The position numbers were made by a program, and so were the translations under genes. From Candidatus Poribacteria bacterium (GTDB lineage Bacteria; Poribacteria; WGA-4E; WGA-3G), in NCBI GenBank assembly GCA_964291315.2, contig OZ219751.1, positions 1 to 64,000 on the forward strand: a DNA stretch of 64,000 bases, read 5' to 3'. Of this stretch, positions 1,754-54,650 are shown piece after piece. The notes beneath the pieces are model-generated. The model was not told the origin of the DNA and did no database searches. It saw nothing but the letters and a program-made list of their open reading frames with translations. How positions within the stretch are numbered: the first letter of the stretch is position 1; every line of letters starts with the position of its first letter.

Positions 1754-3160
1754 TTATATATTACTTATCAAATGGCTATGTAAGGAAACTTTGCGAATAG
1801 CATGCAGGATCCCTGATGTGGCACCCGCCACCGGCTTCGTCAATAAGGGTAAAAATATGAGTTGAGAACAAGCCCGTTCAGTGATCGGTAAATCTCCTGC
1901 TGCATAAGTTTTAAACTGCTCCCCTATATTAACCGTACAGAGATGACAGCGATTGTGCATATACATATCAAATCCGTGTCTGAAGACAGGTAAAGTGTGG
2001 AGAAGTGGGCATGGATTGCTGTTTGTCGGGAAACTGCCTGAAAACAGCGGCCTACCGTCTCCAACAAGGAGCGGATAAGGATTATTGTTTGCCAAGACCC
2101 CTTCTTTTTGAAGTCCTTCTGCGAAGGCCGGGGCCGGAAGTCCGTTCATCTCCTCTGCATGATAGCGGATAGGCAAACCGTAGAATCCTGCTGATTCGGT
2201 GCCTTCATAAGTTTCGACAGCAGAAACGCCCGGAATCTCTTGCAATCCGTCCGAGATTTCTTGGATATAGGCGCGGCGATTCGCGTTGAGCTCATCAAGT
2301 TTCTTCAGTTGAACAGAAGCGATGCCGATAGCAAGAGGATGGGCCCGAAATTTAATACCTAAGCCCATCGGTGGTAGATGTGGATAGCGCAATTCATCAT
2401 CTCTAGCTTCGCTTATGGCACTAAAGGAACGATTGACCTGACCGAGTAGACATGCACGTTCAAAAATTGATACATCATTAGTTGCAAGCATTCCGCCCTC
2501 ACCGCCACTGACAGGCTTGTTACCTTGTAAACTCCAAGCGCCTACCTTGCCGATGCTTCCGCACTGTCTACCTTTGTAAGATGCACCGTGCGCGTGGGAG
2601 CAGTCCTCAATGACTGCTATCCCGGTTTCCTGACTGAGTGCTATCAGGGCATCCATGTCACACACATTACCCCACAAATGGACCGCCACAATCGCTTTCG
2701 TCCGTGGTGTGATGTGCCTCCGGACATCAGCAACGTCAATGAGTAGTGTTTTCGGATCCACTTCGCAGAAAACGGGTGTTGCCATCAGCGCTAGCGCCGG
2801 TGTGATTGAACCTACCCAGGTGTACGTCGGGCAGATGACTTCATCTCCGGGTCCAACCCCGACTCCAAACATAGCACTATGTAATGCTGCTGTGCCGTTA
2901 GTAAGGCTCAAAGCAAATCGAGTTTGGTGACGTTCACGCCAGGTTTGTTCAAATTCGTGAACAGTCGGAGAGGCGCCGGAAAGCTCGTTCCGCAGAGTCA
3001 TGTCATAAACAATCTGGGCTTCTTCTTCTGTGATTTGCTTCCATGTGTCTAACTTCGGATAGGGGGCCTCAGAAGATGTTTCAAAGACAGGTAGTCCGCC
3101 TAAGATCGCGGGAATATCTCTTCGGCTAGTCTTAAGATGTGGCGATTTCTCTTTGTGCAT
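1754..3160 (-). CDS. DegT/DnrJ/EryC1/StrS family PLP-dependent aminotransferase
   Basis: NGTAALH, GPGDEVI, VHLWG, IEDCSHAHG and SLQGNK..GGEGG (PLP lysine) motifs; RBS GGAGGAG upstream. Confidence 0.9.
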   Translation of the reverse strand: MHKEKSPHLKTSRRDIPAILGGLPVFETSSEAPYPKLDTWKQITEEEAQIVYDMTLRNELSGASPTVHEFEQTWRERHQTRFALSLTNGTAALHSAMFGVGVGPGDEVICPTYTWVGSITPALALMATPVFCEVDPKTLLIDVADVRRHITPRTKAIVAVHLWGNVCDMDALIALSQETGIAVIEDCSHAHGASYKGRQCGSIGKVGAWSLQGNKPVSGGEGGMLATNDVSIFERACLLGQVNRSFSAISEARDDELRYPHLPPMGLGIKFRAHPLAIGIASVQLKKLDELNANRRAYIQEISDGLQEIPGVSAVETYEGTESAGFYGLPIRYHAEEMNGLPAPAFAEGLQKEGVLANNNPYPLLVGDGRPLFSGSFPTNSNPCPLLHTLPVFRHGFDMYMHNRCHLCTVNIGEQFKTYAAGDLPITERACSQLIFLPLLTKPVAGATSGILHAIRKVSLHSHLISNI

Positions 3161-3218
3161 CTCTATGGAGTCTCCTCCGGTATCTTTTTTTACGGTTTCA
3201 TACAGTTCTTCTGTAAAA

Positions 3219-3532
3219 TGGAAACTGTGAATTCCGACTCCTTATTGTAGAAGTAGGAGCGATCGCCAAGTGCTGCCTGCTTGCAGACAACCCAGAGAAA
3301 CCTAAAGCTGAATAAACTTAAATTTCTCGAATCGTAAAGTGTTTTTAATCTGGCGCCTATGTTATACTTAAGAGTTGTATTGTGGATAGATCCAACATTA
3401 GGCATAATAACATGTCTTGAAGATTTTTGTCAAATTTCAATAAGGTGGAAACCGTGAATTCCGACTCCTTATTGTAGAAGTAGGAGCGATCGCCAAGTGC
3501 TGCCTGCTTGCAGACAACCCAGAGAAACCTAA
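3219..3532 (+). repeat. 87-bp direct repeat, two copies (3219-3305 and 3446-3532), containing a REP-like GTAGGAGCG...TGCTGCCTGC hairpin
   Basis: Copies differ at one position (GAAACTGTG vs GAAACCGTG). Confidence 0.95.
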
Positions 3533-3555
3533 GTTTCACAGAGAATTGAAAAATC

Positions 3556-4644
3556 TTGAATATCCCAAAAGCATTCGCTTCCCTGCTACAGGATAGAACG
3601 GCTCAAATCAAGAATCTGTTTGTTAATTACTGCATGCCTCCTCTTCTCGCTTTCTCTGTTTTTTTTCTTTTGTGTGGGCTTGTACTCCAGATACGCGGAA
3701 AGGATCCCTTTGAGTTCTACAGCATCATCTTTGTCAGTGCTTTTTCAAGCCTTGACGATTTTGGTTATGTGCTGTTCAACGCAACCCCGCTTGTCTTTAC
3801 AGGACTCGCTGTGGCTATTGCCTATAAGAGTGGATTGTTTAACATCGGTTGTGAGGGGCAGCTCTACGTTGCTGCGTTTGCTTCCGCCTGGGTAGGCATG
3901 TACCTGCCGCTTCCTGCTTTTTTGTTGATTCCTCTTTGTATAGGAAGTGCAATGGTTGCTGGTGCTGCATGGAGTGCCGTCCCGGGGCTCTTAAAAGCGA
4001 GATATGGTGCGCATGAAGTCATCAATACCATCATGATGAATTTCGTCGCGTTTGCCCTTATGAATTATCTTGTTACAGCTGTGTACCAAGAACCCGGACA
4101 AATGATTCCCCAAACTCCGGAGATTTACGAAGCAGCGCGGCTTCCACGATTAGCATCTCTGTTCCCTATTCTGCCGAGCAGCAATCCTCTAAATGTGAGT
4201 TTTTTATTTGCTTGTGGATGTGTCCTGTTCTGCTATGTCTTCTTAAAATACACTCGTTGGGGATACGAACTTCGATTGTTTGGAAACGCCCCGGATGTTG
4301 CCGTTTATGGTGGAATAAATCCGCGAACCGTGACAGTGTGGGTAATGGCATTAAGTGGAGCAGTTGCAGGGTTAGCCGGAGTGGCTGAGGTGTTAGGATA
4401 TCGTTATCGGTTTCTGGATAATTTCTCATCGGGGTGGGGTTTCACCGGGATTGCCGTTGCCCTTTTAGGGAGAAATAATCCTTCCGGTATTTTGGTGGCA
4501 GCTGTGCTCTTCGGATTATTGAATAAGGTCGCCTTAGATATCGAAATTTTGTTAGAGATTCGGCGCGGCCTATTTCTTTCCGGACAAGGCCTATTAATTA
4601 TCTGGTTGATTTGCACAGAGAGAATTGCGTGGAAGAAAAAATGA
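3556..4644 (+). CDS. ABC transporter permease, nucleoside/sugar (BPD_transp_2) type
   Basis: Multiple TM segments; TPLVFTGLAVA, GLFNIGCEGQ, HEVINTIMMN and GFTGIAVALLG motifs. Confidence 0.9.
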   Translation: MNIPKAFASLLQDRTAQIKNLFVNYCMPPLLAFSVFFLLCGLVLQIRGKDPFEFYSIIFVSAFSSLDDFGYVLFNATPLVFTGLAVAIAYKSGLFNIGCEGQLYVAAFASAWVGMYLPLPAFLLIPLCIGSAMVAGAAWSAVPGLLKARYGAHEVINTIMMNFVAFALMNYLVTAVYQEPGQMIPQTPEIYEAARLPRLASLFPILPSSNPLNVSFLFACGCVLFCYVFLKYTRWGYELRLFGNAPDVAVYGGINPRTVTVWVMALSGAVAGLAGVAEVLGYRYRFLDNFSSGWGFTGIAVALLGRNNPSGILVAAVLFGLLNKVALDIEILLEIRRGLFLSGQGLLIIWLICTERIAWKKK

Positions 4645-5483
4645 TTTTTGAATTGATCCCAAGCACTTTGCGAATGGCAACGCCATTAGGGTTTGCCACG
4701 CTCGGCGGGATTTACTCGGAACGCGCCGGGGTAATCAACCTTGCCCTTGAAGGGATGATGCTCATCGGGGCATTTGGCTACGTTGTGGGAACCCAAGCTT
4801 CTGATTCAACATGGCTTGGACTGCTTGTAGGCATGGCGTTTGGGTTTGGGTTCGCCTTATTGCATGCCGTTGCGACTATTACTTTTCGGGCAGAACAAAT
4901 CGTCACTGGAATAGCAATTAACATTTTAGCATTAGGAATTACGGAGTTCCTTATACCTATACCTGAGCAGGTAGGCGGACTTCCACAATGGGAATTCCCA
5001 CTTGTCGGTTCCTATAGTTTTCTAGTTTATCTGTTACCTGTACTGACTGTAGTGAGTCATATTTTCCTCTTTAAAACACCGTGGGGGCTTCGGCTGCGGG
5101 CTGCAGGTGAATCAACTGCGGCACTTGCATCGATGAGTCTCAGCCGCGCAAAATGGCAATACTTAGGCGTTCTGATAAGTGGTATCTTAGCAGCGATTGG
5201 AGGTTGTTTTCTGGCATCAGAAGTCCACTATTTCACCAAAGGTATGACTGCAGGGCGCGGTTATCTCGCGATCGCAGCGGTCATCTTCGGAAATTGGAGG
5301 CCTTTGAGCGGGATCGCAGCGTGCTGCCTCTTTGGGTTCACAACTGCTTTAGAGTTCGTAAACCGATGGAATGTACCAGTGCAGCTACTCCATAGCTTGC
5401 CCTATATCTTAACAATGATTGTCCTCGCTGGATTTGTCGGAAAATCACGTCCACCTGCAAGCTTAGGAAAACCCGGGGCATAA
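4641..5483 (+). CDS. ABC transporter permease (second subunit)
   Basis: SERAGVINLALEGMML, TPWGLRLRAAGE and GRGYLAIAAVIFG motifs; ATG overlaps the upstream stop. Confidence 0.9.
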   Translation: MIFELIPSTLRMATPLGFATLGGIYSERAGVINLALEGMMLIGAFGYVVGTQASDSTWLGLLVGMAFGFGFALLHAVATITFRAEQIVTGIAINILALGITEFLIPIPEQVGGLPQWEFPLVGSYSFLVYLLPVLTVVSHIFLFKTPWGLRLRAAGESTAALASMSLSRAKWQYLGVLISGILAAIGGCFLASEVHYFTKGMTAGRGYLAIAAVIFGNWRPLSGIAACCLFGFTTALEFVNRWNVPVQLLHSLPYILTMIVLAGFVGKSRPPASLGKPGA

Positions 5484-5508
5484 CCTTCTTGCTTCATCTT
5501 ACGAGAAG

Positions 5509-7863
5509 TTAGGCTTCCTCACTATCATTGACGAGTTCGTCACAGTTAGGGTGACGACTGTAGTAACCGTAGGATTTAGCCTGTTTTGGATCAATCATAT
5601 TGCAAAGCACACCGATTCCTTTCGTTGGAAATGCTTCCGTTAGATCACGTATACCGGTGAGAATGTCAGCCCGTCGAGTTTTCGTGATGTCAAAGACATA
5701 AACAATAACATCAACCATGTTTGCCAGAATCATGGGATCCGCCACAGCGCGGATTGGCGGCGAATCGATGACTATCACATCATATTCTGATTTTGAAAGT
5801 TCCAACCAATGTGTCATCATTTCTGAGTTGAGAAGTTCGATTGGGTTAGGTGGAACGGTTCCACTCGGTACCAAATGCAAATTAGGAATACCCGTCGGTT
5901 TAATCGTTGTGTGCAGTATGTCTTCTGCGTTTTCGGAGTTCAAGTGGATGAGAGCTTCGCTCAATCCCGGCTTACGACTATCGACGCTCAGCGCAGTGGA
6001 TTCAGAACGAGGCAGGTTGCCCGTATGCTCAGATTCGAGAGGTTCATCAGTTGAAAAGATATTGTGTTGGGTGGGCCTGCGCATATCCGCATCTATTAAT
6101 AGGACCTTATTTCCTCTTTGTGCGAGTGCAACAGCGAGATTAGAGGCAGTAGTGCTTTTGCCTTCGCCGCGCATCGCGCTCGTGACGAGGATTGTTTGCA
6201 AAGGTGTCCCCGGGTTCAAAAATGGCAATTTTGCTTGTAGAACCCGGAATGCTTCTGCTGATCCTGATTCAGGTGCATCGTGAACAATAAGTGGGAGTCG
6301 GTAAGTTCTGCGTTTTTTTATGGAAGGCAAAATACCGAGAAAACTTGGAGATTCAGGCATCGCATCTAGTTGCCGCACAGCCTCCTCTAATCGCAGATAT
6401 GTATCTTTGAAGTAATTTTTGGCGACAGCGAATGTTACGCCTAGTAGCATTCCGACAAATGCCCCTAAAGCGAGGTTAAGTTTTAACCGCGGTTTCAGGG
6501 GTTCTTCTGGTGCACGTGCTGCGTCTAATACCTTAATGTTTTCTGTTCGTGATTGAGAGAAAATCTCGGATTCCCGCATCCGCGTTTCTAAAGCTACGAC
6601 TTGTGCATTGTAGATTTCAATATCTCGTTTGAGCCGGTAGAATTTCAGTTGGTCGGGCGACCATTCTCGGAGTTGGGTGAAGTGTGCTGCTATTTGGGCG
6701 GTAACTTCTTCTTTCTGTTGTCTGAGACTAGTAGAGTTTGCTTGTGTTTCGTTTACCTTTTCTGAGATAACTTGGTAGAGCGGATTGTAGGAGGATGTTG
6801 TACTTGTTATTTTTTTTTCTTCTTTATCGAGGCGTGTCTTTGTTTCTCTAATTTGTTCATCTACAGAAGTGACCTCAGGGTGTGTTTCATCATATTTCCC
6901 TAGAAGCGCAGCACGGTCAATTTCATACTGGTTCAAACTATCCCGCAGCTTAGCATGTGACGGGTTCTGTCCGACTGTTTCTGAGATAGTATTTTCTGAT
7001 AACTTTTCCAGTTCCTTTTGATAAGTAGCAAGTTTCAATTCGGCACTTGCTAGGAGGCTAATCAATTCGTGTTCCCTAACTTGGAGTGCCAAAATGATTT
7101 GTGCTTGTGTGCCTCCTTCCGCGTTTAAGGTAATCTCTGGGTGTTCTTGCTGAAAGGTAAACAGTTCGTTCTCAGCTCTCGTAAGGTTTTCCTTGGTCTG
7201 ATTTAGGAGCTCTTGCGAGAAAGGTTTTTGCCACCAACCCATTTCTTCGGCGGTTTCTGCTTCGACGGCTGCCTGAAATACCTCAGCGATCTTGTTGACC
7301 AAGTTTTGTGCGCGTTCCGGGGTCCGCTGTTTCACGGTCACAGTGATCACATTCCTATCGAGTACTTCTTCCACCTTTAATTGTTCTTCAATGAGGGTCT
7401 TGATAAAGAAATCTTCCCACTCAGTAGGCGTAAGATCCCCTTGTTCTGTGGCATTTGGATCGAGTTCAATATTTAGCAAGCTAGCAAGCCATTCTACAGA
7501 GCGCGCTCGATAGACAGGTAACGGTTCAAGCAGTCCCTCTTCTTTGAGTTGCTGTACTGCCGGCGCGACGACAAGGTCCCGCGACTGTAATTGGGCAGTG
7601 TAGGCGCCTAAAGAAGTCCCGTTCAATAATCCTGATAACGGTAGCTGCGAAAGCAGTGTAGAAGCTGGCTGTTTGTCTACCATACGCAGCACTGTTTCTG
7701 ATTGATAAACAGGCGCCGTGAAATCAGTCACAAGAAACGCGCCAAAAACGGAAAACACGAAAATGAAAAGAATACTCCACTTGTTCCGAAAGAGGATCCA
7801 AAAATAATCTGATAGTCGAATTTCCCTAATTTCTTCAAAGTATCTATCGGTTGTTTCGCGCAT
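5509..7863 (-). CDS. wzc: Wzc-type polysaccharide co-polymerase / tyrosine autokinase
   Basis: Wzz-like N-terminal TM, coiled coil with YDETHPEV, second TM, Walker A GEGKST, LLIDADMRRP, VIDSPP and Tyr-rich tail YGYY. Confidence 0.9.
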   Translation of the reverse strand: MRETTDRYFEEIREIRLSDYFWILFRNKWSILFIFVFSVFGAFLVTDFTAPVYQSETVLRMVDKQPASTLLSQLPLSGLLNGTSLGAYTAQLQSRDLVVAPAVQQLKEEGLLEPLPVYRARSVEWLASLLNIELDPNATEQGDLTPTEWEDFFIKTLIEEQLKVEEVLDRNVITVTVKQRTPERAQNLVNKIAEVFQAAVEAETAEEMGWWQKPFSQELLNQTKENLTRAENELFTFQQEHPEITLNAEGGTQAQIILALQVREHELISLLASAELKLATYQKELEKLSENTISETVGQNPSHAKLRDSLNQYEIDRAALLGKYDETHPEVTSVDEQIRETKTRLDKEEKKITSTTSSYNPLYQVISEKVNETQANSTSLRQQKEEVTAQIAAHFTQLREWSPDQLKFYRLKRDIEIYNAQVVALETRMRESEIFSQSRTENIKVLDAARAPEEPLKPRLKLNLALGAFVGMLLGVTFAVAKNYFKDTYLRLEEAVRQLDAMPESPSFLGILPSIKKRRTYRLPLIVHDAPESGSAEAFRVLQAKLPFLNPGTPLQTILVTSAMRGEGKSTTASNLAVALAQRGNKVLLIDADMRRPTQHNIFSTDEPLESEHTGNLPRSESTALSVDSRKPGLSEALIHLNSENAEDILHTTIKPTGIPNLHLVPSGTVPPNPIELLNSEMMTHWLELSKSEYDVIVIDSPPIRAVADPMILANMVDVIVYVFDITKTRRADILTGIRDLTEAFPTKGIGVLCNMIDPKQAKSYGYYSRHPNCDELVNDSEEA

Positions 7864-7883
7864 ATCTTACTTTAACCTCTAAT

Positions 7884-9121
7884 TTATCTCCCTAAGATAT
7901 TGAAAAGCAGATTCACAAACGATATAGCAGATGTAATAATTCGCCAATCTAAACGTATCCGTTCACGAATTCGGAGTTGATCTTTCGGATGTAGATAAAT
8001 ATCCGCCTGCACAAGATCGAAGTTTATTTCCTGTTCTGTCCCGTCTGCTCGCGTTAAGATACATTTTTTAGGGTTTGCTCTGTTCTCATCAAATCCTCCT
8101 GCCATGACGATAGCCTCTCTTAGAGGCACCGGCTCAGTAATCACGTATTGCCCCGGCTTCTCTACTGCTCCCGTCACGCTTATTTTTGCCTCAGCGAGAG
8201 GGATGTACAACGTGTCACCCGGGGCCATCATAACATTTGCATTTTCTGCGGATAGATCTACTAAAGTGCGTTTTTCACTAGTGATAACTTCTGCGTTGTG
8301 CAGGTCTGCGAAATTTGATCTCGAACCACCAGCAAGTTTCAACACCTGAATCGCGGGTATTTCCGGGGTTGTTATACGATAGACGCCCGGGGAAGCTACG
8401 GCCCCTATGGCGCGTACAGCGCGCTGTTGATAGATAGACGGAACAAAAATAATATCATGGTCTTCTAAAGGAACATCGGGACCACCATCGTCGAGCAGTT
8501 GTAGATAATTAACTTTTCTGTACAGTTTCCCACCACGCCAGATGTAAATGTTGCTGAGGTCAGCGGTTTCATAGATGATGTCTGCTGATGCCAATGCTTG
8601 GAGAAGATAAACCTGTCCGACTTCAAAAATATGCAGATTGCCCCGCCCGCGCGACGTAACTGCCCCAAAAACGAGAATCGTACGCTTCGGCTGCATAAGT
8701 GTCACAAACACGCGCGCCGTTGGAAGCTGTGCTGAAAAAGCAGCCTGCATCTGTGCTTGAAGTTCTGGGACGGTGAGACCGGTCGCCTTGATCAGCCCAA
8801 TGAGTGGATAGGATACATAACCATCTTGTTGAATTGGTACTGGAATTCTGTCTTTACTATATTCCGGGTAACCATCGACGGTAACGACAAAACTGTCACC
8901 GATTTGCAGTCTGTATGTAGAAACTTGCTCGGAAGGTTTTGATCTTCCGGTGTCGTTTCTGTGTTGATAGTAGGATTTTCCGCTGGAGGTTCTCCTGCCA
9001 AAATCGATACAGGGAAACCGATTTGTATGATTAGCAGAAACGGAGCAAAACCACTAATAGTAAGTTTTAGGAACTTACCGATCGCACTCAAAGAATGTCC
9101 GCGTAAAGGAAGGGTATTCAT
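7884..9121 (-). CDS. wza: Wza-like polysaccharide export protein with SLBB domains, frameshifted near 8937-8940
   Basis: Adding one A in the CAAAAC run joins ORF 8792-9121 (signal-like) to the frame reading YRLQIGD...DGYVSYPLIGLIKATGLTVPEL, which continues into ORF 7884-8750 (GAVEKPG SLBB repeats). Confidence 0.8.
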
Positions 9122-9274
9122 AGAAAATTACAGTTAACCTTTTCCAAAAGATTTTCGTTTTTTTTGTTGCCTTCAAGGCACATTTTGCAAGCATACCTCA
9201 TATATTTTAGCAGCTATACGCCGGAAAAGCAAAACAAATCATGCGCATTGTCTATAGACAACTTGTGTTTTTAG

Positions 9275-9505
9275 TTACAAACCACGGCACTTCTCTTCAA
9301 AAAAAGAGTGTATTGTGCGCTTGCACTCACCGCGCAGGATATTGAAACCTGCGTTGTCGAGCTCAAATTGTGTTATCCAAGTAGTCTCCACACGTCCGTT
9401 TAAGACGTGGCAAACGGGTCGAAAACTCGAGAGCGAGACAGGTAGCGATCTTCCGGCGCGATAGCCGGGCGTACCGACATCGTCCTGATGTCTGAAGGCT
9501 AGCAA
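9275..9505 (-). pseudogene. Fragment of a secreted-protein C-terminal region (GTPGYR..LPVSLSSF..W.TQ.ELDNAGFNILR)
   Basis: Resembles the LPV.L..F...W.T.sE.nN.GF.i C-terminal Ig-like module of large secreted proteins; lacks both the N-terminus and the end of the domain. Confidence 0.6.
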
Positions 9506-9639
9506 GTTTCATTATACCTTAAACTGTTGTCAAATACTTTTCACCCAAAGAATAGGGAATACCCTTTTTGACCGTCATCTCCTTAACTGTGCTAATATTC
9601 AACAACCTATAGTCATCTTATCTCGACTTATGCTATAAT

Positions 9640-10600
9640 TTGATAGACTCTGCTATCTAAAGCGCAGGGGATCTTTGAAAGTGAATACTCGCTTTTTGGT
9701 GCGGATTGTGGCATTCCGATATCGGTTGAAGTCTGCAAGGGTCGATCACAATCGCAAGTCTGATACCAGCTAAGACGAAGGTGGATGTTCCAACCTTTAT
9801 TATATTTATCGCAGCGTTTACGTCTCTTACGAGGAACACGGGCAACATCTTTCCATGTGCGTTCCCGATTATTGCTTCCTTTGATTTTCCGTGGATGTTC
9901 GCGTTGTGTCCCTGAAAGATCATTCAGAGAGGTTTTATAGAATTCCGGAGACATGTATAGTCTCCGGTGTGAACAAGTGAACATTGTTCTGATACTGAAG
10001 TCAAAAACGGAACAGGGCGAATCGGAAGCAGCTTGCCCATCTTAGACAGCATTTCGGAAACGATGTAGTCTATCACAACGAACATATAGAGACCTCCGAG
10101 ACCATCTTTCTTTAGTATGATGATTTTGATATGATCCAGTACAGGTCGGCTTCGGTTAAAGCGATAGCGTTTATCGTGTATCCGAACTTTATCACCATAG
10201 AAGCTGTAGCTATAGCGGACAGGGTGAACTAGTAAGGTTTTCACTAGGAACGGAATTGATGCGGCCGCTTAGCAAGAGCAGCGAAGAAACTTTTATATCC
10301 TTAATGCAACCTTTTGAGGAGATTGTGTGTGCCCAGGAGTGCAACTCATGCCAATGTGCAAACACTTCAGAGGGCAATTTACGCAATATCGTGAACTCAC
10401 GAGACATGTCATTATAAAACATATACGGAAAGCCGATCGAATGCGCGGATCGTTTCTGCCTAATAAGTAGTTCCAAATATCGTGTACTATCCGCGTCAAT
10501 GGCTTCAAATTGTGATTGCGTTTCGCACGAAATAGTTTGTGGAGTGTTCTATACAATGGTGCTTCTCGTTTCTCGCTTTAAACCGTAAGAGCGGGTGGCA
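9640..10600 (-). mobile_element. tnpB: Degenerate IS200/IS605-family element with fragmented tnpB
   Basis: Fragments in several frames: helix-like ..IVHDIWNY, RERTW, and RDVNAAINI (RuvC-III); right-end-like GATCCCCTGCGCTTTAGATAGCAGAGTCTATCAA ending in TCAA at 9640; many stops and frameshifts; left boundary approximate. Confidence 0.75.
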
Positions 10601-10782
10601 GAGATATTGTCTGGAGACAGTACTAATTATGTTTGCCAACGAGATAAATATATCATACATTCGCGTTTGTCAAATTTATTCTTGACACAAATCATTAACT
10701 GCCACTACAGCTCCGACACAGAGGAACGCGGGTTTGTAGCGGGGGATTGGATAAAAACGACCCACAGGAGGCCTTTACAACT

Positions 10783-13692
10783 ATGACAGCGAATCTCGCT
10801 ATTGCGTACTTACTTCTAAGTGCGCTTCTCGGAACGGTTACCTTAATCTGGGGCATTTTTCGGTACAGACGGAGTCAGCAGCGCCGGAGAGGTGCGTTCA
10901 AGATTCATGCATATCTGCTTTGGCTCCTCACCTTACTCATCGCAGTGAGCAGCTTCATGCCGCTGGCGTACCTCTACACAGAACACCTCTGGTTCGAGAG
11001 TCTCGGACACCTTGATGTTTTCTGGGGATTACAACAGATCCGGTGGGGCATCTTCGGGGTCTGCTTTCTTGTTGCCCTTGGATTCATGAATGCCAATGCT
11101 GCTGTGGCGAATGTCCTCTGCCCAGAGTCCCGTGAGTTTCGTCGTTGGACACACATGCGGACATTCTCTTTCCATCGTGCAGTGTTCTGTCTGACCTTCA
11201 TTGCAGCACTCCTCCTTGCAACACCGATGTTGCTATTGGACGATATATATTTAAGGTATCGGAATCAGCCAACGGCAGTCAGCAGTCAGCAGTCAGCAGT
11301 CAGCAGTCAGCAACCAACATCTGATAATCATTTCGGCAAAGATCGAAACTTCTATCTCTTCAGTTTCCCACTCCACCGATGGGTTAGCCTCTGGGTGCAG
11401 GCAACACTTTGGGTGACGTGCATAGTCGTTGGACTCCTCTATAACTTTTACTATCGTCGAGATGCTCACACTATGCAGCGTGTGAAGCGACACATCATCT
11501 TCCATGGATCGGCGCTGTGGTTGCTCCTCCTTTTCGTCGGTGGGTGGCGGAGCTATGTCAACCTCTGGAACAAGGTTTACACCCGTCCGTTGACCCAAGA
11601 ACTTTCGTCTCTCCACGGCTTGTTCTATGTTGATTTCCACCTCGAAGGTGCGACATATATCTATTGCGGTGTATTAATCAGTATTGCCGCGGCGATCGTC
11701 TTCAACGTGTTTTGGCGGAAACGGTTTCTATGGTATGCAACGCTCGGGGTATGGGGCTTGAGTTATCTATTCCTCATCCATGTATATCCATTGGCACTCC
11801 ACCTCTGGGAGGCCCGCATCAACGTGTTGGATAAAGAAGAACCGTATCTGCATCGACACATTGAGGAGACACGTCTTGCCTTTGAACTCGATACGATTCT
11901 GACAGAAAAGCGCGGGAAAGGGCTTGCTACATTGGACATGATCAAAGAAAACGAAGAGATTAAAAAGAACATTCAAATCTGGGATCGGCGTGTGCTTTAC
12001 GAAGCACTCCGCGAGGCACAGATTCAGACGCACTACGATTTCCATCCGTATACAGATGTTGATAGGTATCGCGTTGGAGACGAGTATCGGCAGGTCCTAA
12101 TCGCCGCGCGCGAAGTGAGCCCAGAAGAAGATATCGTCGGGTGGGAACCCTTGAAGTTACAATACACACATGGTTACGGAGTCTGTGTATCCCCGGTAAA
12201 CGAGTTTATCGAGGATGGGTTTCCGAACTTTTGGGTCGGCGATACCCCGATCCAAAGCAAATATAAAGAACTCAGCGTCCAACGTCCACAGATTTATTAC
12301 GGAGAGATGACGAACAACTATGTGATTGTCAACACACAGCGCAACCTTAATGAGTCTTCAGGTACCGTAGCCTTGCCGCAAACCCCTGGAACGTGGGAAC
12401 GACATGCCTATACTGGGGACGGTGGTGTTCCCTTAGGAGGTTGGTTTCGACGGCTTTGTTTCGCCCTCCGGTTCGACTTCTTCCGGATCCTGCGTTCCGA
12501 ACGGTTGACATCCGAAAGCCGTGTCATGTTCCTCCGGAAAATCGGGACTCGGCGCGGCGATCAACTCATTAAGGATCGGGTTGCACACATTGCTCCCTTC
12601 CTCAACTATGATCCTGATCCTTATATCGTGATTAGTGGCGGTGAGCTCTGGTGGATCATCGACTTTTATGTAACGAGCCGTTACTATCCGAACGCCCAAG
12701 TCTATGTTGACGACACAGCGCGGTTAGCAGAAACCCAGCTCTACGAGGAACCTAACTTCGAGAAGTTTAACTACATCCGAAACTCAGGAGTCGCTGTCGT
12801 CAACGCCTACACGGGTGCTGTTAGTTTCTATGCCATCAAGAAAGATGAAGCTGTGATGCGTACCTATCAGAAGGCGTTCCCTGATCTCTTTAAATCCGTA
12901 TCGGAGATGCCCGAAGGGTTGAAAGCACATCTCCGGTATCCGGACTACCTCACACGGATTCAAGCCAAAATGTATGGGGCCTATCACAGGCGTGCCGACG
13001 ATTTTTACCACCGACGCGATCACTGGCTAATTCCGAAAGAGGCGTACTACTCATCGGAAGCCGATCAGGAGATGATGCCGTACTACGCTATGCTCAAACT
13101 GCCGGGCGAGGATACCTTAGAATTCGTGAACATGATTCCGTTTACACCGCCGAAACGCGAGAAACGGTTAAAGGCATGGATGGTTGCACGGTGTGACCCA
13201 CCAAACTACGGAGAGCGGATTGTCTATATATTGCCGGAGGGTGCAGATGTCGCAGGACCCACACAGGTCGAAGAAGACATTAACAAAGCGACAGGGCAGC
13301 AACAGGTCGGTTGGAAAGAAACAAGCGATGTGATTCGTGGAAATCTACTCATCATACCGATTGAGGACGCGCTTTTCTACGTCGAGGCGATCTATCTGCA
13401 AGCGAAGCGGCAGGAAAAAGACAATGGGGATGATACGCAGCCGCGCCGTCCAAAATTAGAGATGGTTGTGGTGAAGGCGGGATCGAGTGAGCTTGCATCG
13501 GCGAAGACGCTAGATAAAGCGTTGAACGTACTTTTCCTCGGGCAACCGGCGGTCAATGCGCCGGAAGAGGGCGAAGCACCTCCAACGGCAATGGAGTTAT
13601 TGGAGCAGTTGCGTCAAAGCCATGCAAAGAGCAAGGCACAAACAGAGGCGGTTTTGGAGAGACTGATTGAGGTTCTAGGTGAAGATCAGTAG
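10783..13692 (+). CDS. UPF0182 family membrane protein
   Basis: YTEHLWFESLG, FYLFSFP, DVDRY, YTHGYG, PQIYYGE, DPDPY, NYIRNS, HLRYP and VIRGNLLIIPI motifs. Confidence 0.92.
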   Translation: MTANLAIAYLLLSALLGTVTLIWGIFRYRRSQQRRRGAFKIHAYLLWLLTLLIAVSSFMPLAYLYTEHLWFESLGHLDVFWGLQQIRWGIFGVCFLVALGFMNANAAVANVLCPESREFRRWTHMRTFSFHRAVFCLTFIAALLLATPMLLLDDIYLRYRNQPTAVSSQQSAVSSQQPTSDNHFGKDRNFYLFSFPLHRWVSLWVQATLWVTCIVVGLLYNFYYRRDAHTMQRVKRHIIFHGSALWLLLLFVGGWRSYVNLWNKVYTRPLTQELSSLHGLFYVDFHLEGATYIYCGVLISIAAAIVFNVFWRKRFLWYATLGVWGLSYLFLIHVYPLALHLWEARINVLDKEEPYLHRHIEETRLAFELDTILTEKRGKGLATLDMIKENEEIKKNIQIWDRRVLYEALREAQIQTHYDFHPYTDVDRYRVGDEYRQVLIAAREVSPEEDIVGWEPLKLQYTHGYGVCVSPVNEFIEDGFPNFWVGDTPIQSKYKELSVQRPQIYYGEMTNNYVIVNTQRNLNESSGTVALPQTPGTWERHAYTGDGGVPLGGWFRRLCFALRFDFFRILRSERLTSESRVMFLRKIGTRRGDQLIKDRVAHIAPFLNYDPDPYIVISGGELWWIIDFYVTSRYYPNAQVYVDDTARLAETQLYEEPNFEKFNYIRNSGVAVVNAYTGAVSFYAIKKDEAVMRTYQKAFPDLFKSVSEMPEGLKAHLRYPDYLTRIQAKMYGAYHRRADDFYHRRDHWLIPKEAYYSSEADQEMMPYYAMLKLPGEDTLEFVNMIPFTPPKREKRLKAWMVARCDPPNYGERIVYILPEGADVAGPTQVEEDINKATGQQQVGWKETSDVIRGNLLIIPIEDALFYVEAIYLQAKRQEKDNGDDTQPRRPKLEMVVVKAGSSELASAKTLDKALNVLFLGQPAVNAPEEGEAPPTAMELLEQLRQSHAKSKAQTEAVLERLIEVLGEDQ
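11275..11312 (+). repeat. Heptamer tandem repeat (GCAGTCA)x5 inside the UPF0182 CDS
   Basis: Directly visible; encodes AVSSQQSAVSSQQ. Confidence 0.95.
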
Positions 13693-20644: not shown

Positions 20645-21368
20645 GAAAAGCGAGCAGAAGCTTGGATATTTTGAAAATAGGGTGAAGCAGGCAAAATTTA
20701 TGGATCGCCCGAATCGGCAGAAGGTGCGCGCTGCTAGTGCCCAAGTCGGTATGCACTCGGCGCAATTGGAAGGGTTACGCAGTGAATTGTATCAGCTCGA
20801 ACGACTTTATAGCGGAGGTCTTTGTTTCCATCAAGCTACAGAGAATGAACTCCGTCAAATTTGGGGATGGGTAAACCGACCGGCCATCAGAAAATACCTT
20901 TACACAGCGCGGGTGTCGTTTGAAACCTTTCTCAAGGATTGGCACCGTTGGAGTGCAGAAGAACGGACACACCCGCTTGCTATCGAACTCTATACAACGC
21001 GACTCCTCGTGGGGTTTATTCTTCTTCAGCATGAAGCCGAAACCGTCACTATCAAATTCGTTGTCGTTCGACCCGATTACCGTGCTCGTGGGTATGGCAC
21101 AGATACACTCGTTAAAGCTACCCGTTACGCTTTTGAGCAACTCAATGCCGAGCATATCACGGTACACGTATCCGTTGACAACGGGCCCGCACTCATCTGT
21201 TTTGAGAATGCAGGGTTTCGGTACCTCGGTTACACAGATACTGTAGGACAGAACTACATGATGGGCATTGAACGCAGCGAATGGGAAGGCGACACGCCAA
21301 TAGACGAGGAAGTGGTATTTCCACGCCTCAGTACCCCTCTAGGAGCGTTTTTTGAGAAAGAAAAATAA
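20541..21368 (+). CDS. GNAT family N-acetyltransferase with N-terminal coiled-coil extension
   Basis: VRPDYRARGYGT acetyl-CoA motif and N.PA..CFE..GF; RBS GGGAG upstream of ATG 20541. Confidence 0.8.
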   Translation: MNETRIRNEPVETRDANADPQKWAAAIQNLLRIIEKSEQKLGYFENRVKQAKFMDRPNRQKVRAASAQVGMHSAQLEGLRSELYQLERLYSGGLCFHQATENELRQIWGWVNRPAIRKYLYTARVSFETFLKDWHRWSAEERTHPLAIELYTTRLLVGFILLQHEAETVTIKFVVVRPDYRARGYGTDTLVKATRYAFEQLNAEHITVHVSVDNGPALICFENAGFRYLGYTDTVGQNYMMGIERSEWEGDTPIDEEVVFPRLSTPLGAFFEKEK

Positions 21369-21578
21369 TTCTTTTTTTAGGTATTTGGTGTTCTTCTAGT
21401 AGCAATTTTGGGGGTTGTCAATATACCGGCCACGCTCGAAAAAGAAGATAAGCACTTTTCCTACTTTACCTATTTTGAGGAATAACGGTTATTTCTATAC
21501 TTTTCCCGGTAGAACGGAACTCCGATACTAGACTTTTGTCGGACGCATTCGCATATCCGGACTGTGTTCCCTTATACT

Positions 21579-21689
21579 TTAGTGCGGAATCGCCGGTATA
21601 TACCTGATTAAACCCAATAAACCCCTTAAAGATAACGCTTTACCTTGGTGCAGAATGCCGGTACATGCTCTGACGGGTAGAAGATTCAT
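21579..21689 (-). CDS. Putative small protein, 36 aa (MNLLPVRACTGILHQGKALSLRGLLGLIRYIPAIPH)
   Basis: RBS-like AAAGGGG 3 nt before the ATG; below the ORF-track size cut-off; no recognisable family. Confidence 0.25.
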   Translation of the reverse strand: MNLLPVRACTGILHQGKALSLRGLLGLIRYIPAIPH

Positions 21690-21975
21690 TTGCCCCTTTG
21701 CTTATGTTTTCTCTATTGCTATTCTAAAGCACCAATTGTTCAGTTGACTTTTATTGTAAATTTGTTGTTTTATTCAATATAATGGGATATTGTCGGGATT
21801 TGGAAATCCATCCGCCCGGGCGCAAAGTGAAGTTTCTTCGTACCGGGATTTCGGAAGTTTTTTCAGATTAATTGATAAAAGTGCATCCGAAGATGTGTAT
21901 AAGCGAATCATTGTCATTTTCCTTATGGCAATGGTATCCTACTACCGCTGTATCGCGGAAAAGGAGGTATTTGTT

Positions 21976-22008
21976 ATGTTAGCAAACCAGAGGAGGTGTG
22001 ACACTTAG
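21976..22008 (+). CDS. Putative mini-ORF MLANQRRCDT
   Basis: Perfect AAGGAGGT RBS at 21961-21968, 7 nt before the ATG. Confidence 0.3.
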   Translation: MLANQRRCDT

Positions 22009-22052
22009 TGTTGCGCCCTTGTGGTGTGACATTTAGTGTCGCACGCTTTGGA

Positions 22053-22089
22053 AGGGGCAGGGGGTTAAAATCCCTCTGTCCCCTGTTTT
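22053..22089 (+). terminator. Rho-independent terminator
   Basis: GC-rich stem AGGGGCAGGGGG/TCCCTCTGTCCCCT followed by GTTTT. Confidence 0.7.
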
Positions 22090-22224
22090 CGATATATGCT
22101 ATTCTTATCTTATGTTAAAAATAGGGCTAACTGAATTTTCATAGCATATTTTTTATCTTATTTTCCTGCCCAAACTGCAGATCTTACGATGCCAGATGCA
22201 GCAGGCACCATAGTCTAATTTAAC

Positions 22225-22253
22225 TTGCTTTTCCTCTTGAAATGTGTTAATAT
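22225..22253 (+). promoter_or_regulatory. Sigma70-type promoter
   Basis: TTGCTT-N17-TAATAT with TG at -15/-14. Confidence 0.55.
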
Positions 22254-22266
22254 AAATGAATATCTA

Positions 22267-22447
22267 TAGGAAGTATCTCTGAAGATACTATCCCAGCAGC
22301 GGGTCCCAAGGCCGTCCACAGAGACCATCGACTCCAGGGGCCTTAGCAGGTTTTCGTGCAAGCGAAGCAGCAATTTTAGCACGACCGACAGTGGATCTGC
22401 CTATATCTCGCTAGTAGGGGATGCCAATTTTTGATATACTATCCTAT
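22267..22447 (+). ncRNA. Candidate ~180-nt rod-shaped ncRNA (6S RNA-like)
   Basis: Nested complementary segments ATAGGAAGTAT/ATACTATCCTAT, ATCCC/GGGAT, AGCGGG/CTCGCT, AGGC/GCCT, TCCAC/GTGGA, TCGTGC/GCACGA; lies between a promoter and a terminator. Confidence 0.45.
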
Positions 22448-22451
22448 GTAC

Positions 22452-22490
22452 TTAGCAAGGGATGTTTTTTTGCTAACATTTTTTAATTTT
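22452..22490 (+). terminator. Rho-independent terminator after the candidate ncRNA
   Basis: TTAGCAAGGG/TTTTTGCTAA stem followed by T-rich tract. Confidence 0.55.
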
Positions 22491-22534
22491 CAACAGTTCT
22501 AAACTACAAACAAAATGAAAAGGAGGAGGTACCT

Positions 22535-22621
22535 ATGATGCTAAATTTGAACCACGCCACACTTTATCTGAAAACATATAGTCCACGGCGATGGTGCCTC
22601 TGCCCATTATCGACGATTTGA
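22535..22621 (+). CDS. Putative small/leader protein, 28 aa (MMLNLNHATLYLKTYSPRRWCLCPLSTI)
   Basis: Very strong RBS AAGGAGGAGGT immediately upstream. Confidence 0.35.
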   Translation: MMLNLNHATLYLKTYSPRRWCLCPLSTI

Positions 22622-22671
22622 TTGAAATGGCATAGGCGTGGTCGCCTCACATGTGAGGAGTCGGTCTATCT

Positions 22672-41591: not shown

Positions 41592-41593
41592 AC

Positions 41594-50496: not shown

Positions 50497-53400
50497 TCAC
50501 GGAATTCTGACAACGACGATTGTCATATCGTCATACTGCTCTGCCTCGCCCACGAAGCTGCGGACATCCGCTACAACATGCTCAACGATTTCTGTTGCGT
50601 TGTAACCGTCAGGGATGCGTGAAATGGAGTCTTTTAAACGTTCAGTTCCGTACATTTCCTCCTTTTCATTGAGTGCCTCAATAAGACCGTCCGTATAAAA
50701 AATTAGAATATCGCCCTTACTTAAATCGACCGTCTCAGATTCATATCGCACCCTTTTCATACTGCCGAGAGGGAGATCGCTATTTTCAATCTCAATTATA
50801 TCGTCACCGCGCTTGAGAACGGGGTACGGTTGACCACCATTAGCATAATCGATTTGTCTCTTAGTTTCATCAAGAAGTGCAAGATTGAGCGCAATGAAGC
50901 TCGGTCCATACATACGCGGTGCTAATCCTGAATTGAGGTCGCTCAGAATGACAGCCGTATCAGATTTGAAACGTGAGATTTCGTACAACATTCCATTTGT
51001 TAGCACCGCATTCATCGCGCCTCGCAGGCCTTTTCCAGCGGCATCTGCTACCACTATTGCTGTTTGCCCATTCGCTACGGTAAGGTAATCGTAGAAGTCG
51101 CCACCTACTTGTGTCGCGGGCACCGACATTCCGGCCACATCAAACCCTTTCGTATCAGGTGCTTCTGTAGGCAGAAGCCCCATTTGGATATTCTGTGCTT
51201 CGTTCAGCTCAGCGCGAATACGGTTTATTTCCTTTTCTTCACTTTCACGCATTTGGTTACGTAACTGCACCGTGTGCCGTCTATTAACGATTAGACGGCC
51301 CAACAATGCAAAAACAACCGTGATAAAAATCAACGTCGGTAGATAAGTCCGCCAGCGTGTCCAGAAAGGTGCTTGAATATTAAAATCGACGACCGCCGGT
51401 GGATGTGTGTAGGGCCAGTCCTCTCGGAATGCCTTAACGAGGAAACTATAATTTCCAGCTTTCAAGCCGGTGTATCGGATGCGCAGTATACCGTTCCGAT
51501 TTTGAAGCCCCACTTTAACTCCGCTGTTACTCATGAGCTGCCCATCTGTTGATTCGGATGTAAGCGGACTCACCCATCCCTCAGATGAAGCATTGGGATT
51601 TGTTGTTAAAAAAGAAATCATTTCTGCCGAAACATGAGTCCACTTTTGTGTGCCCAATCCAAGCAATTTGAATTGGTATGAGAGCCCTTCCCTGAGCGGA
51701 CTAATCCCTTGCACATCAAAGGTAATATTTCTGCTACCGCGCGCCGGCAGCCCTAATTTAGATGAGAGCTGCGTGTAGGTTTTGTCAGCCTCTAAAGTAA
51801 TCAGCCGACAGCGTGGAAGTCCGCCGCGTGTAGGCGTATACTGTGTCGCTCCGCCTTCTGTAGCAAACCATAGGTCTTGATTTGTTGATTCATAAACTTT
51901 CGATATGTTGTTGTGGGCTAGCCGTTTTTGGTGGTACGTGTGTGGAAGGTTTCACCATCATATTGAACAATTCCCCCGCCTCTTGTTGCAAACCAGATAT
52001 TACCACTGCTATCCTCTATCACATCCGACACGTTGTTCACAAGGAATCCATCTTTTGTTGTGTATGTTGTCAGCTCTTTTCCATCATAGCGAACGGCTCC
52101 ACGGGATGTAGCTAACCAGAGGCTCCCATCCTTGGAAGTTAATGAAGCATTTACTGATGCAAGTTCAATATCTCGAGTCGTTATCAATTTTGTTCCTAAG
52201 TATGTCCTCAGAGCATTTGAAAAAAGAAAAGTTATCTCGTTATTCTGCTGTGTTGGATCCTTCCAAACCGCAAGTGGTGCTGAGCTTGACCCACCTTCAA
52301 GAGTGTGTGGAACGTAGAGTTCAGTCTCACTCCACATTATCAATTTTCCTGTTACTGCGTTGAAGTACCATTTTCCTGCTGTTGTGGATTTTAACAGGGT
52401 TGTTGCTTTAAGGGGGAGTATTTCTGGGACGATAGGCCGTGTTCTGGCTGTTAAGCGTTCCAGATTTTTGGGGTAACGTAGAACCTTTCCGTTCCCGAAG
52501 TGCACCCAGAGCCTATCATTGAGGTCTTTATATAGATCAGTAATAGGAGTTTCAGCTTGATCTATCTCGGTGGTTGTTCCAAACTGGAAACTCTTTATAG
52601 CCGAGACATATTGGTCTATCTCAGTAGTTGTTTCAAACAGAATTTGCTGGAGTTTGCCGAGTCTGCTATTCGTAAAGTGTAATAGTCCGGAAGTATCGGC
52701 TTTAAAAAGGTGTCCTCCGAAAGCGAGCCATCGGTGTTTTCCTTCTGTAAGGAGTACTTCAGGTTCGATGTTTGCTCCTTCTCCGCCGGGTCCGATTCGT
52801 GTTTTGATGGAGATAGTGACTTCATCGAATTTTCCATTTGCATATCGGAAGAAGGTATATCGGGTAGACCTCTGAGATCGTCTTGGATCTACAGAGTTCA
52901 CAAACCAGATGTGTCCATCAACTTCAAAAATTTTTGTAACTTCAGTTCGAAAACGCAACCGAGTTTGATCCCTGTCTGTAGCGTTGACTTGTGCTGATGG
53001 TGATCCATCTTGAGTCAAACCCAAGAGTAGTGAAGCTGTAGTCAGCTCTCCGAGCTCCGCGTTATAACGAGCAACACCTCCGCGAACACTAAACCAGAGA
53101 TAACCCCGACTGTCTTCATAGATCAGTCGCACTCTATGGTTGCCAAGACCGGCATGGGTACTGATAGCCGGAATCGGATCGAACGCCATTACACCGTTAT
53201 TGTGTCCAAACCACAATTTACCGTCAACAGCTTCAAAAATCGTGTGGATATGATCGTTTTCGAGACCGCTGCTGGCAGTATAAGAAATTGGCTCAAGATC
53301 AGCATTATACTGCTGTGGACCCTTTTCATTAGTGAACCATAAATTACCCCAGGCATCTTCAGCTTCAAGAAATCCTGATAGGTTTTCGTGTGTGCGTAAT

Positions 53401-54650
53401 CGTGAGCCGTCCCACCATCTTGTGGTATATTCGTCGCTGAACCAGACGCGTCCTTGGCTATCGCTCTGAATTGTAGGGGTTTTCCGATTCATAGCTGTTT
53501 CGTGAAGGGCTGATATTGAACGTCGTCTGGCACGTTTGCGGTTGCGTTTCCGATTTATAGTTGTTTCCTGAGGGGTGCTTGAGGCGGAGCTTTTATACCG
53601 GGAAGTTGCGGGGAGAATCTGCTCAAAGTTTTTTCTGTCAAAACGTAGAAGGAGGTTGTAGCCACCGAACCAAAGGTTCCCTGAGTTATCTTCGGCAATT
53701 GCTGTGATTCCTCCCGGAGTGTGAAAGTTTGAGGGCTGGTAACGTACAACCTTCTGTCCATCTGATGCAACTGTGGTTTTTACAACGCGAAAGTTTTCAG
53801 CATCGTAACGTACAAACCCGCTGCGTGCTTGCGTGTGCGGTGTGCTGTCGTCTGTTTTGTTCGTTGTTTCGCGGCTTAGCGTTTCGTTTCCCTGATGACT
53901 TTCTCGGAAGCTCAGGATAACTCCTATTTGTTGATTTTCGCCTACACTTCCGCCGAGCCACAGTGTTCCGTCTTTACTTTCGAAGATAACGTTGATGGTC
54001 AAATATGTTGAACCGAGTAAATCTTCGCCTATAATTTCGTTGGGTTGTGCTTGTGGTGGGTGTTGGGTATCTGCAACATATTTCGTCAGTCGCTGTTTTC
54101 CTCCAACCCATATGTTCCCTAGGTGATCGGCAATCAGTGAGTTGCCATTGCCGATTAGACTGATTGAGTTGCCATCGAATCGGCTCACTCGTCCTATTCT
54201 TTCTGAGGGTACTCGTGTGAGGAACCATATGTATCCCCACTTATCCTCAACGATTTGTAGGGTTTGTCCAAGTAGTGCCCCGGGGCCCACTTTGGCAGAG
54301 AGCAATTCCGAGGGGTTTAAAGACCCATAATACGGTTCAAAGGTGTTTCCATCAAAGCGACTGACCCCATTTTGATCAGAACCGAACCAGAGGTTCCCGC
54401 GGCTGTCCTGGAAAATAACAGGAACGACGGGCCCCACCAAACCATCAGCAACAGTGTAAGTTTGTATCTGCTCAGCGTGAGTATCAAAATAAGCAGAAAT
54501 TGCAACAAAAACTACACTAAAGATAAGCATCAAAATTTTTGCTGGAGCCGGTAAGTTTATGAAACTTGCTAAACGAAGGTTAGGGGTTGCCATAAGCTTT
54601 GTGTGCTCTAAGATCATTTTATCGTTTTGTCGCCTAGAGGTACGAGTCAA
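50497..54650 (-). CDS. Two-component-regulator beta-propeller sensor with Y_Y_Y domain, TM and SpoIIE/PP2C phosphatase, frameshifted near 51921
   Basis: Repeated EDS.G.LWF blades; one extra G gives KNGLAHNNISKV continuing to Y..L..G.Y.F.V.A, PFW, TM, GGDFYD, ADAAGKG, YTDG and DDMT. Confidence 0.85.

Follow-up and report, generated by a model that had tools for sequence, protein, structure and literature searches.

The window analysed here is a stretch of 64,000 nucleotides (G000:C2:1-64000) from the genome of a sponge-symbiotic Candidatus Poribacteria bacterium. Two of its genes carry short segments with a shared anatomy, in which an imperfect direct repeat of roughly 30 bp (the arms) encloses DNA that resembles neither neighbour (the filler). 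One gene, on the minus strand at 51918..54650, encodes a Reg_prop beta-propeller sensor of 910 aa as called (Pfam PF07494, E 1.1e-34); the other, also on the minus strand, at 1754..3160, encodes an aminotransferase of the DegT/DnrJ/EryC1 family (Pfam PF01041, E 6.5e-76), here called DegT. A first-pass annotation of the window had listed five such repeat pairs, four spaced by 66 bp and one by 54 bp, and had read them as possible scars of off-target integration of spacers by the adaptation machinery of CRISPR systems. The pairs lie where it placed them, although they are weak as nucleotide repeats, and the intergenic pair at 21575/21641 is unsupported, leaving four of the five as real. We put at roughly 55% the probability that the window insertions are scars of off-target spacer integration by the CRISPR adaptation modules resident in this genome.

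Insertions in the propeller sensor and DegT genes

Aligned with its orthologues, the propeller sensor has three insertions, of 66, 66 and 54 bp, that are seen in this genome (G000) alone, each composed of an imperfect copy of about 30 bp of its flank plus 24-37 bp unrelated to either flank. The comparison took in 11 same-genus orthologues (59-73% identical), two further orthologues, from genomes G017 and G054, and six paralogues from relatives.

Event 1 comprises an upstream arm (53789..53817, minus strand, coding FVRYDAENFR) that is 22/29 identical to the downstream arm (53723..53751, minus strand, coding VVRYQPSNFH) and a 37-nt filler between them (53752..53788, minus strand, coding about VVKTTVASDGQK); by codon alignment, 29-nt arms and a 37-nt filler make up 66 bp. 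The orthologues have a single FVRYDTSNLR aligned with the upstream arm. The filler is absent from 11/11 of them, and exactly 22 aa are missing in all 11 between FVRYDAENFR and the GGITAIAED that follows. Event 2 has the same period: a 30-nt upstream arm (53547..53576, minus strand, coding TPQETTINRK), 25/30 identical to the downstream arm (53481..53510, minus strand, coding ALHETAMNRK), and a 36-nt filler (53511..53546, minus strand, coding RNRKRARRRSIS), again 66 bp by codon alignment. All 11 orthologues lack about 22-23 aa at ETTINRK...ETAMNRK, a linker of variable length. Event 3 is shorter, with 30-nt arms and a 24-nt filler giving 54 bp: the upstream arm (52611..52640, minus strand, coding LFETTTEIDQ) is 25/30 identical to the downstream arm (52557..52586, minus strand, coding QFGTTTEIDQ) in the codon alignment, and 24/30 in another register. 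Its filler (52587..52610, minus strand, coding YVSAIKSF) is missing in the paralogues as well as in the closest orthologues. At TTTEIDQ...TTTEIDQ the latter have 18 aa fewer, and more distant orthologues carry 9 other residues there.

The sequences from G017 and G054 and the six paralogues also lack all three segments. Among 64 genomes of other species of the genus no match spans the insert-bearing region, and in the two genus genomes that match the sensor at E 1e-20 or better the inserts are absent; the closest protein among 5.8 billion sequences is 67% identical. The segments do not derive from the blade periodicity of Reg_prop proteins, as the 22-aa and 18-aa segments are missing from every orthologue and paralogue examined. 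At codons for residues shared between the arms there are no synonymous differences in event 1 (0/5) or event 2 (0/5), so little neutral time has passed since these two insertions arose.

The same data bear on whether these are ordinary tandem duplications of 54-66 bp, of which one half diverged under selection while the other was kept as a motif (VRYDxxNF in the propeller, NxNPxPLL in DegT). The arms do code recognisable motifs, VRYDxxxF being a blade strand of the propeller, and the TVASDG of the event 1 filler weakly recalls the TQARSG upstream of the first arm (8/18 nt). The first-pass annotation had argued that a simple tandem duplication should be similar over its whole period, and here its argument is borne out: the DNA that separates the arms resembles neither neighbour beyond chance, with 4-13 of 24-39 positions matching (10/37 and 13/37 at the same offset for event 1, 9/36 and 7/36 for event 2), whereas true tandem cases elsewhere in the genome score 25-31/38 over the period. 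Halves that had diverged this far would also not be expected to retain arms free of synonymous differences, and a filler described below demonstrably comes from another gene. We regard diverged tandem duplication as very unlikely. Plain duplication does occur in the same gene: the propeller orthologue L028, from genome G002, has an ordinary full-length tandem duplication (LDRAQNVVTLESQ...HSGRS twice).

In the DegT gene, the upstream arm (2066..2092, minus strand, coding ANNNPYPLL) is 18/27 identical to the downstream arm (2000..2026, minus strand, coding TNSNPCPLL). The filler between them (2027..2065, minus strand) is 39 nt long and codes VGDGRPLFSGSFP; together with one arm it makes up the 22 aa missing from 3/3 homologues in family f4 of the order. 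Both copies are present, full length, in 60/60 other genomes of the genus, and families f1-f3 keep them too. The f4 homologues (n = 3 fetched, 53-55% identical) have exactly 22 residues fewer, reading ...AR/AK-SNGYPLLH where the window protein reads ...ANNNPYPLLVGDGRPLFSGSFPTNSNPCPLLH. Judged from these alignments, the segment would be either an old insertion of the arm-filler-arm form or a deletion in f4, and the duplicated arm favours insertion. Alignments to solved DegT structures end before the insertion site.

The propeller sensor itself is split. Its orthologues are single open reading frames (ORFs) of 1290-1339 aa with a SpoIIE phosphatase at the end, and here the SpoIIE part (50497..51960, minus strand, Pfam PF07228) lies in another reading frame. 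The called ORF stops at ...TTKNG*, and the orthologous sequence (LAHNNISKVYESTNQDLWFATEGG...) runs on in the other frame into the SpoIIE part (window 51918-51960, minus strand). Three-frame translation places a one-base frameshift at a run of A near 51918-51930, which may be a sequencing error or may reflect a truly split sensor; the gene is not evidently decaying. Why three events should cluster in it is a matter for guesses: the tolerance of its loops, selection on the sensor domain, or a local hot spot.

Resident CRISPR systems and the 66-bp spacing

The first-pass annotation had compared the repeat pairs with the 30+36-bp geometry of type I-B systems, and the genome proves to hold just such a system. 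Array 1 (C4:1950189-1952402) has 34 copies of a 30-nt repeat and 33 spacers, with a modal unit of 66 bp; its spacers are most often 36 nt (13 of them), followed by 37 (6), 34 (4), 35 (4), 38 (3) and one each of 33, 39 and 42 nt. It follows a complete type I-B operon encoding Cas6, Cas8b1, Cas7, Cas5b, Cas3, Cas4, Cas1b and Cas2. Array 2 has 64 copies of a 37-nt repeat and spacers mostly of 35-39 nt (38 nt in 14, 36 nt in 10; range 34-54), and comes after a complete type I-D operon, which includes a Cas4-Cas1 fusion as well as Cas2. The I-B Cas1b scores 453 bits and the I-D Cas4-Cas1 fusion 629 bits; Cas1 has no match in the genome G053. Two smaller arrays complete the set: a mini-array of three I-B repeats (C4:724731-725264), which has a leader-like sequence and lies next to a decayed cas1, and a four-repeat array with a third, 37-nt repeat type ending in GGAATCGAAAC (C4:1875257-1875530). 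As the first-pass annotation observed, no cas genes lie near the loci in the window; the cas operons are on another contig. Nor are the window loci bona fide CRISPR arrays, each having two diverged arms inside coding sequence.

A genome-wide excess of direct repeats at 66 bp had also been anticipated. We scanned the whole 4.4-Mb genome for pairs that agree at 21 or more positions of a 28-nt window, and the plain histogram does peak at this spacing, with 48 clusters at d=66 against 16 at 63, 2 at 69, 12 at 60 and 16 at 72. The peak is explained by other causes, however: 13 of the 48 clusters lie in the I-B array, and 21 of the 35 elsewhere lie in seven genes for leucine-rich repeat (LRR) proteins of 22-residue period, which are true full-period tandem repeats. 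Restricted to pairs with unrepeated intervening DNA and at least 22/28 matches, the scan gave 6 pairs at d=66 against 0-5 at other multiples of three; two of these 6 are a mini-CRISPR array and an 11-mer array. The simple spacing histogram alone gives no support for a 66-bp excess. The 66-bp pair at C4:1720494 has no orthologue in 5 relatives; that at C4:2899191, considered as a further genome-specific event, was ruled out by its conservation in 5/5 relatives.

These results bear on the reading in which nothing was inserted at all and the pairs reflect chance similarity or an intrinsic 22-aa protein periodicity. Periodicity of the LRR genes does account for most of the 66-bp peak, the C4:2899191 pair is shared with all 5 relatives, and chance is the right account of the intergenic pair (21575..21670, no strand assigned). 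Its alignment needs a 1-nt indel, repeat finding did not recover it, and Rfam has no match in window 21000-24000. The pair lies within about 400 bp found in G000 only; 5 relatives have nothing that corresponds to this stretch, which leaves no discrete indel to be read. The pair is a chance similarity. Elsewhere this reading fails. The discrete indel in orthologues that the first-pass annotation called for is present at the other four of its five loci, the three in the propeller and the one in DegT: none of the propeller segments occurs in orthologues or paralogues, nor does the DegT segment occur in family f4. Other insertions in this genome, described below, reach a flank match of only 8-18/27. 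For those four loci chance or periodicity is refuted, and as a general account we give it almost no credence.

Three side observations come from the same scan. The seven LRR proteins are large (G000:C4:103005-107006, 1708562-1714794, 1777716-1778621, 2424282-2428106 and 3012925-3019455 among their locations); six have a FlgD_ig-like C-terminal domain, three a dockerin and one a cohesin, and their genes produce both the 66-bp and the 132-bp peaks of the histogram. At G000:C1:271290-271390 there is a cluster of AGTTATGCACA 11-mers, which resemble DnaA boxes and may mark the replication origin. A dispersed palindromic repeat family with a core of about GCATAGACTGTTAGTCTGTGCA (G000:C4:733480-733700, 1969007 and 2536566; C3:224022) is often paired 56-74 bp apart and explains several non-coding arm-filler-arm matches.

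Further events and a donor in the same genome

Three further events of the same form lie outside the window. A UvrD-like helicase gene (C4:2505954-2507783), which also carries a GIY-YIG domain, has a clean 22-residue insertion that is absent in 3/3 orthologues; the structure at C4:2506221-2506316 consists of 30-nt arms (25/30 identical) and a 36-nt filler. An intergenic event at C4:1101545-1101642 has 31-nt arms (29/31) and a 36-nt filler; the two closest relatives aligned have one copy of the start of the arm, and their intergenic stretch is 85-95 bp shorter.

The third event, in an FGE-sulfatase gene (C4:776712-776819), has two 36-nt arms, 35/36 identical, around a 36-nt insert, in frame. 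This insert is a 35/36 antisense copy of C4:1999163-1999198, a site 1.2 Mb distant; the two copies have unrelated flanks, and there is no microhomology at either junction. The donor site is part of a gene for a DinG/XPD-like helicase. Orthologues in 5/5 relatives equal this gene in length, and its donor-site peptide, SRTDMLQAFRE, is invariant in 3/3 aligned orthologues; the donor is therefore native and the FGE copy derived. Directly 5' of the donor stands GTA, which fits GTN, the protospacer adjacent motif (PAM) published for the I-D system of another organism. Unitigs of two public runs of one study span the FGE structure without differences. In a check for polymorphism of the insert, no joint in the contigs of those two runs skipped 72 bp, and joints skipping 110-187 bp appear to derive from paralogues. 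The FGE gene is without a strict orthologue, its best homologue being 55% identical. In a self-BLAST of the genome that yielded 360 matches between short duplicated segments, the FGE event reached a z of 9.5 for its flanking direct repeat, and the next matches, at z 7.7 and below, fall in the dispersed palindromic family; outside a dispersed family, the FGE event is the only short duplicated segment flanked by a strong direct repeat.

The dimensions of these events resemble those of the resident systems. Arms of 29, 30 and 30 nt (propeller), 30 nt (UvrD) and 31 nt (intergenic) stand against the 30-nt I-B repeat, and the 36-nt FGE arms against the 37-nt I-D repeat, with arm ends in the older events uncertain by 1-3 nt. 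The fillers of 37 and 36 nt (events 1 and 2) and of 36 nt each (UvrD, intergenic and FGE) fall inside the resident spacer ranges.

Separately, a three-copy gene family (C4:559344, 2045887 and 2227164) has 39-nt arms around the same 36-nt filler, a spacing of 75 that is like the I-D unit; homologues in the relative G016 align only downstream of the structure.

Proposed off-target integration and its rivals

We propose that Cas1-Cas2, with Cas4, may carry out, at a site that belongs to no CRISPR array, two strand transfers staggered by about the length of a repeat, so that a spacer-sized fragment would be inserted between them. Repair of the gaps would then duplicate the target on either side of the fragment and leave the arm-filler-arm form. 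The I-B module, with its 30-nt repeat and modal 36-nt spacer, would give 30+36 = 66 bp; the I-D module, with its 37-nt repeat, would give about 36+36 = 72 bp. Selection would keep in-frame events in tolerant surface loops, where they could persist as new segments of 18-24 aa. Of the common I-B unit lengths only 66 is a multiple of three, so inside genes the 66-bp unit would be the one to survive. Retention in genes of only those units divisible by three would explain 66 and 72 in coding DNA and 67 between genes. We infer integration, rather than observe it, from the insertions, their anatomy, their absence in relatives, the match to CRISPR geometry and the one donor in the same genome.

A control comparison indicates how distinctive the anatomy is. 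We aligned 1,021 ORFs of this genome with 1.6 Mb of the relative G016, covering 383,601 residues or about a third of the proteome, and found 34 insertions of at least 8 residues in G000. With gaps as BLAST placed them, a flank duplication of at least 19/27 was found in propeller event 1 only; for events 2 and 3 BLAST gave wrong sizes, 24 and 21 residues. The other insertions score 8-18/27, and one of them, also of 22 residues, lies at a protein N-terminus and has no arms. None of the 33 insertions of at least 8 aa specific to G016 has a flank duplication. The arm-filler-arm architecture is thus uncommon: within the third of the proteome that was sampled, only the propeller gene has it.

Several observations weigh against integration, beyond the chance pair at 21575/21641. 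The fillers in the window are without a recognisable source: the first-pass annotation had suggested searching them against self sequence and looking for PAMs, and that search came back empty, with no identifiable donor or PAM at any window locus and only chance-level matches in the genome by blastn-short, tblastn and an ungapped scan against shuffles. No donor emerged for the other two 30/31+36 fillers either. With up to 3 mismatches allowed, the UvrD filler matches nothing in 64 genus genomes, and neither its first 28 nt nor the 36-nt filler of the C4:1101545 event has an exact match in viral_contigs. A full-length match to any of the 101 spacers of the four arrays, from which a native PAM might be read, was absent both from the genome and from about 2 Mb of sequence of relatives. 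A paralogue as the filler donor was considered and rejected; the six propeller paralogues from relatives lack the inserts and hold nothing resembling the fillers.

The targets are also unlike CRISPR repeats, with in-register identities of 10-16/30 and 12-15/37 across three repeat types, and no leader-like sequence was recognised at them. Local and in-register comparisons together brought one marginal hit, the event 2 target with 16/30 in register (p 0.013 relative to 20,000 random sites, before correction for many tests). The FGE arms score 15/37 (p 0.36). The copy of the event 2 arm that is nearer the repeat (18/30) was dropped as evidence, since by comparison with orthologues it looks derived rather than ancestral.

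Lengths, spacings and distribution raise further difficulties. The 24-nt filler of event 3 falls short of the I-B spacers, which run from 33 to 42 nt, and the FGE duplication is 36 nt against a 37-nt I-D repeat; with two strands possible, a GTN flank would arise by accident on one of them with a probability of about 0.12. At looser cut-offs in the spacing scan 66 is not maximal: at 21 matches or more it has 7 pairs, other multiples of three up to 8, and at 20 or more it has 13, the others up to 16. The DegT event is ancient, and among the 1,021 orthologue pairs there is no 22-aa peak outside the propeller gene.

Some of the difficulties would be expected if the insertions arose instead by template switching or slippage during replication or repair, the nascent strand copying a short stretch elsewhere and returning upstream of where it left, with the match to CRISPR lengths a coincidence. 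High-identity arm-filler-arm pairs also occur at many other spacings, from 46 to 90 bp, so that specificity for 30+36 is not fully established. Three of the six genome-specific events lie in one gene, which a uniform process would not predict and which fits local instability better than a genome-wide integrase. Linker and loop lengths of the propeller vary among orthologues, and L028 has its plain duplication. The fillers themselves hold hints of slippage: the first 12 nt of the event 2 filler match the last 12 nt of the arm at 9/12, reiterating the arm end (NRKR/NRKR), and GTTGTA stands at the start of both the filler and the second arm in event 1. Template switching, however, does not predict five arms of 29-31 nt together with four fillers of 36-37 nt. 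It also leaves unexplained the FGE event, where microhomology is lacking at both junctions and insert and duplication are both exactly 36 nt. A search for templates of the propeller fillers in the local 5.6 kb, on both strands, gave scores within the shuffle null; this adds to the want of a source under integration, and equally deprives template switching of a local template. The control genome G016, finally, has 0/33 insertions of this form. We consider template switching or slippage unlikely.

Off-target integration is the best supported of these explanations; it draws its support from the geometry, the clean insertions and the further events, and lacks a donor or PAM in the window and a target that resembles the repeats. 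The observation in the first-pass annotation was largely real, and most of the refuting conditions set there turned out in its favour. The mechanism is plausible and is strengthened by a separate and much cleaner case, the FGE event; for the window loci we infer it. For the FGE event, we hold off-target Cas1-Cas2 integration to be more probable than for the window insertions.

Integration outside arrays has precedents. Off-target integration in E. coli, giving 'neo-CRISPR' loci, is cited (Nivala et al., 2018) in passages of PMC7054753, PMC11788318 and bioRxiv 10.1101/148544, the last of which describes the evidence from natural genomes, in two other species, as circumstantial. A passage of PMC6698737 reports that P. 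furiosus Cas1-Cas2 carries out full-site integration in vitro outside CRISPR loci, at sites separated by 30-31 bp, the repeat being 30 bp long; the I-B-like arms here are 29-31 nt. As these passages describe them, the E. coli and P. furiosus cases share with ours a target duplication of repeat length that encloses a spacer-sized insert outside arrays. They differ in that they were obtained under overexpression or in vitro at sites resembling the repeat, whereas the present events are fixed in a natural genome at sites without clear likeness to one. Ours, moreover, lie mostly in genes and in frame, have two arms only and show no sign of array growth.

The FGE event has a closer counterpart in the type I-D system of Synechocystis 6803, for which the relevant passages (Kieper et al., 2018, PMC5896167) give repeats of 37 bp, spacers of 35-36 bp and, upstream of the protospacer, a PAM of the form GTN, with spacers derived mostly from the genome when the system is expressed in E. 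coli (PMC5896167). On that description, the 36-nt insert, its origin in the same genome and the GTA upstream of the donor are alike; the integration in a coding gene rather than beside a leader and the duplication of 36 rather than 37 differ, and the GTN motif is that of Synechocystis. Self-targeting spacers in CRISPR arrays are likewise spacer-sized copies of a chromosomal gene, but the FGE copy sits between duplicated gene sequence and not between CRISPR repeats, so it would not become CRISPR RNA and no autoimmunity is expected.

Inserts of transposons and of miniature inverted-repeat transposable elements (MITEs) are also flanked by target-site duplications, usually of 2-15 bp, and some palindromic elements persist in frame in genes. 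The present inserts are unlike these: their sequences are all different, they have no terminal inverted repeats, and the duplications are 30-36 bp.

If integration is the right reading, a reaction so far demonstrated under overexpression and in vitro would have fixed natural examples in this genome, one of which preserves the donor, a PAM-like flank and exact junctions. Beyond seeding arrays or damaging genes, the process would then create in-frame protein segments that selection can keep, and the repeat and spacer lengths of a genome should predict the lengths of its in-frame insertions. At a little short of even odds, we tentatively extend this to a broader claim: in this lineage adaptation enzymes may repeatedly and naturally give rise to protein indels. 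Off-target integrations by the I-B and I-D systems would have added loops of 18-24 aa to at least four proteins (three to the propeller sensor, and others to the UvrD-like helicase, the FGE-sulfatase and, anciently, DegT), sometimes from DNA of the cell's own genes. Among the matches listed in a limited full-text literature search we found no report of in-frame integration scars, which is not proof of their absence.

The remaining observations concern the assembly and other repeats. Positions 1-13224 of the window are a 99.99% inverted copy of the start of contig C3 (G000:C3:1-13225), and C1:631873-650350 likewise matches C4:3243132-3261609. Both reflect overlapping contig ends in the assembly, and the apparent second 'copy' of the DegT gene is therefore no true duplicate. 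A promoter-like element of 36 nt (TTGACA ... TATAAAAT) is identical at two unrelated loci, C4:2723325-2723360 and C4:721703-721738, and has a 93% copy at C3:199635-199678. Within the window, a perfect heptamer repeat (GCAGTCA, 5.4 copies, 11275-11312) lies within the ORF at 10747-13692, and a 27-bp two-copy repeat occurs at both 27401-27454 and 29922-29973, in ORFs (26517-27602 and 29036-30121) that may be paralogues.

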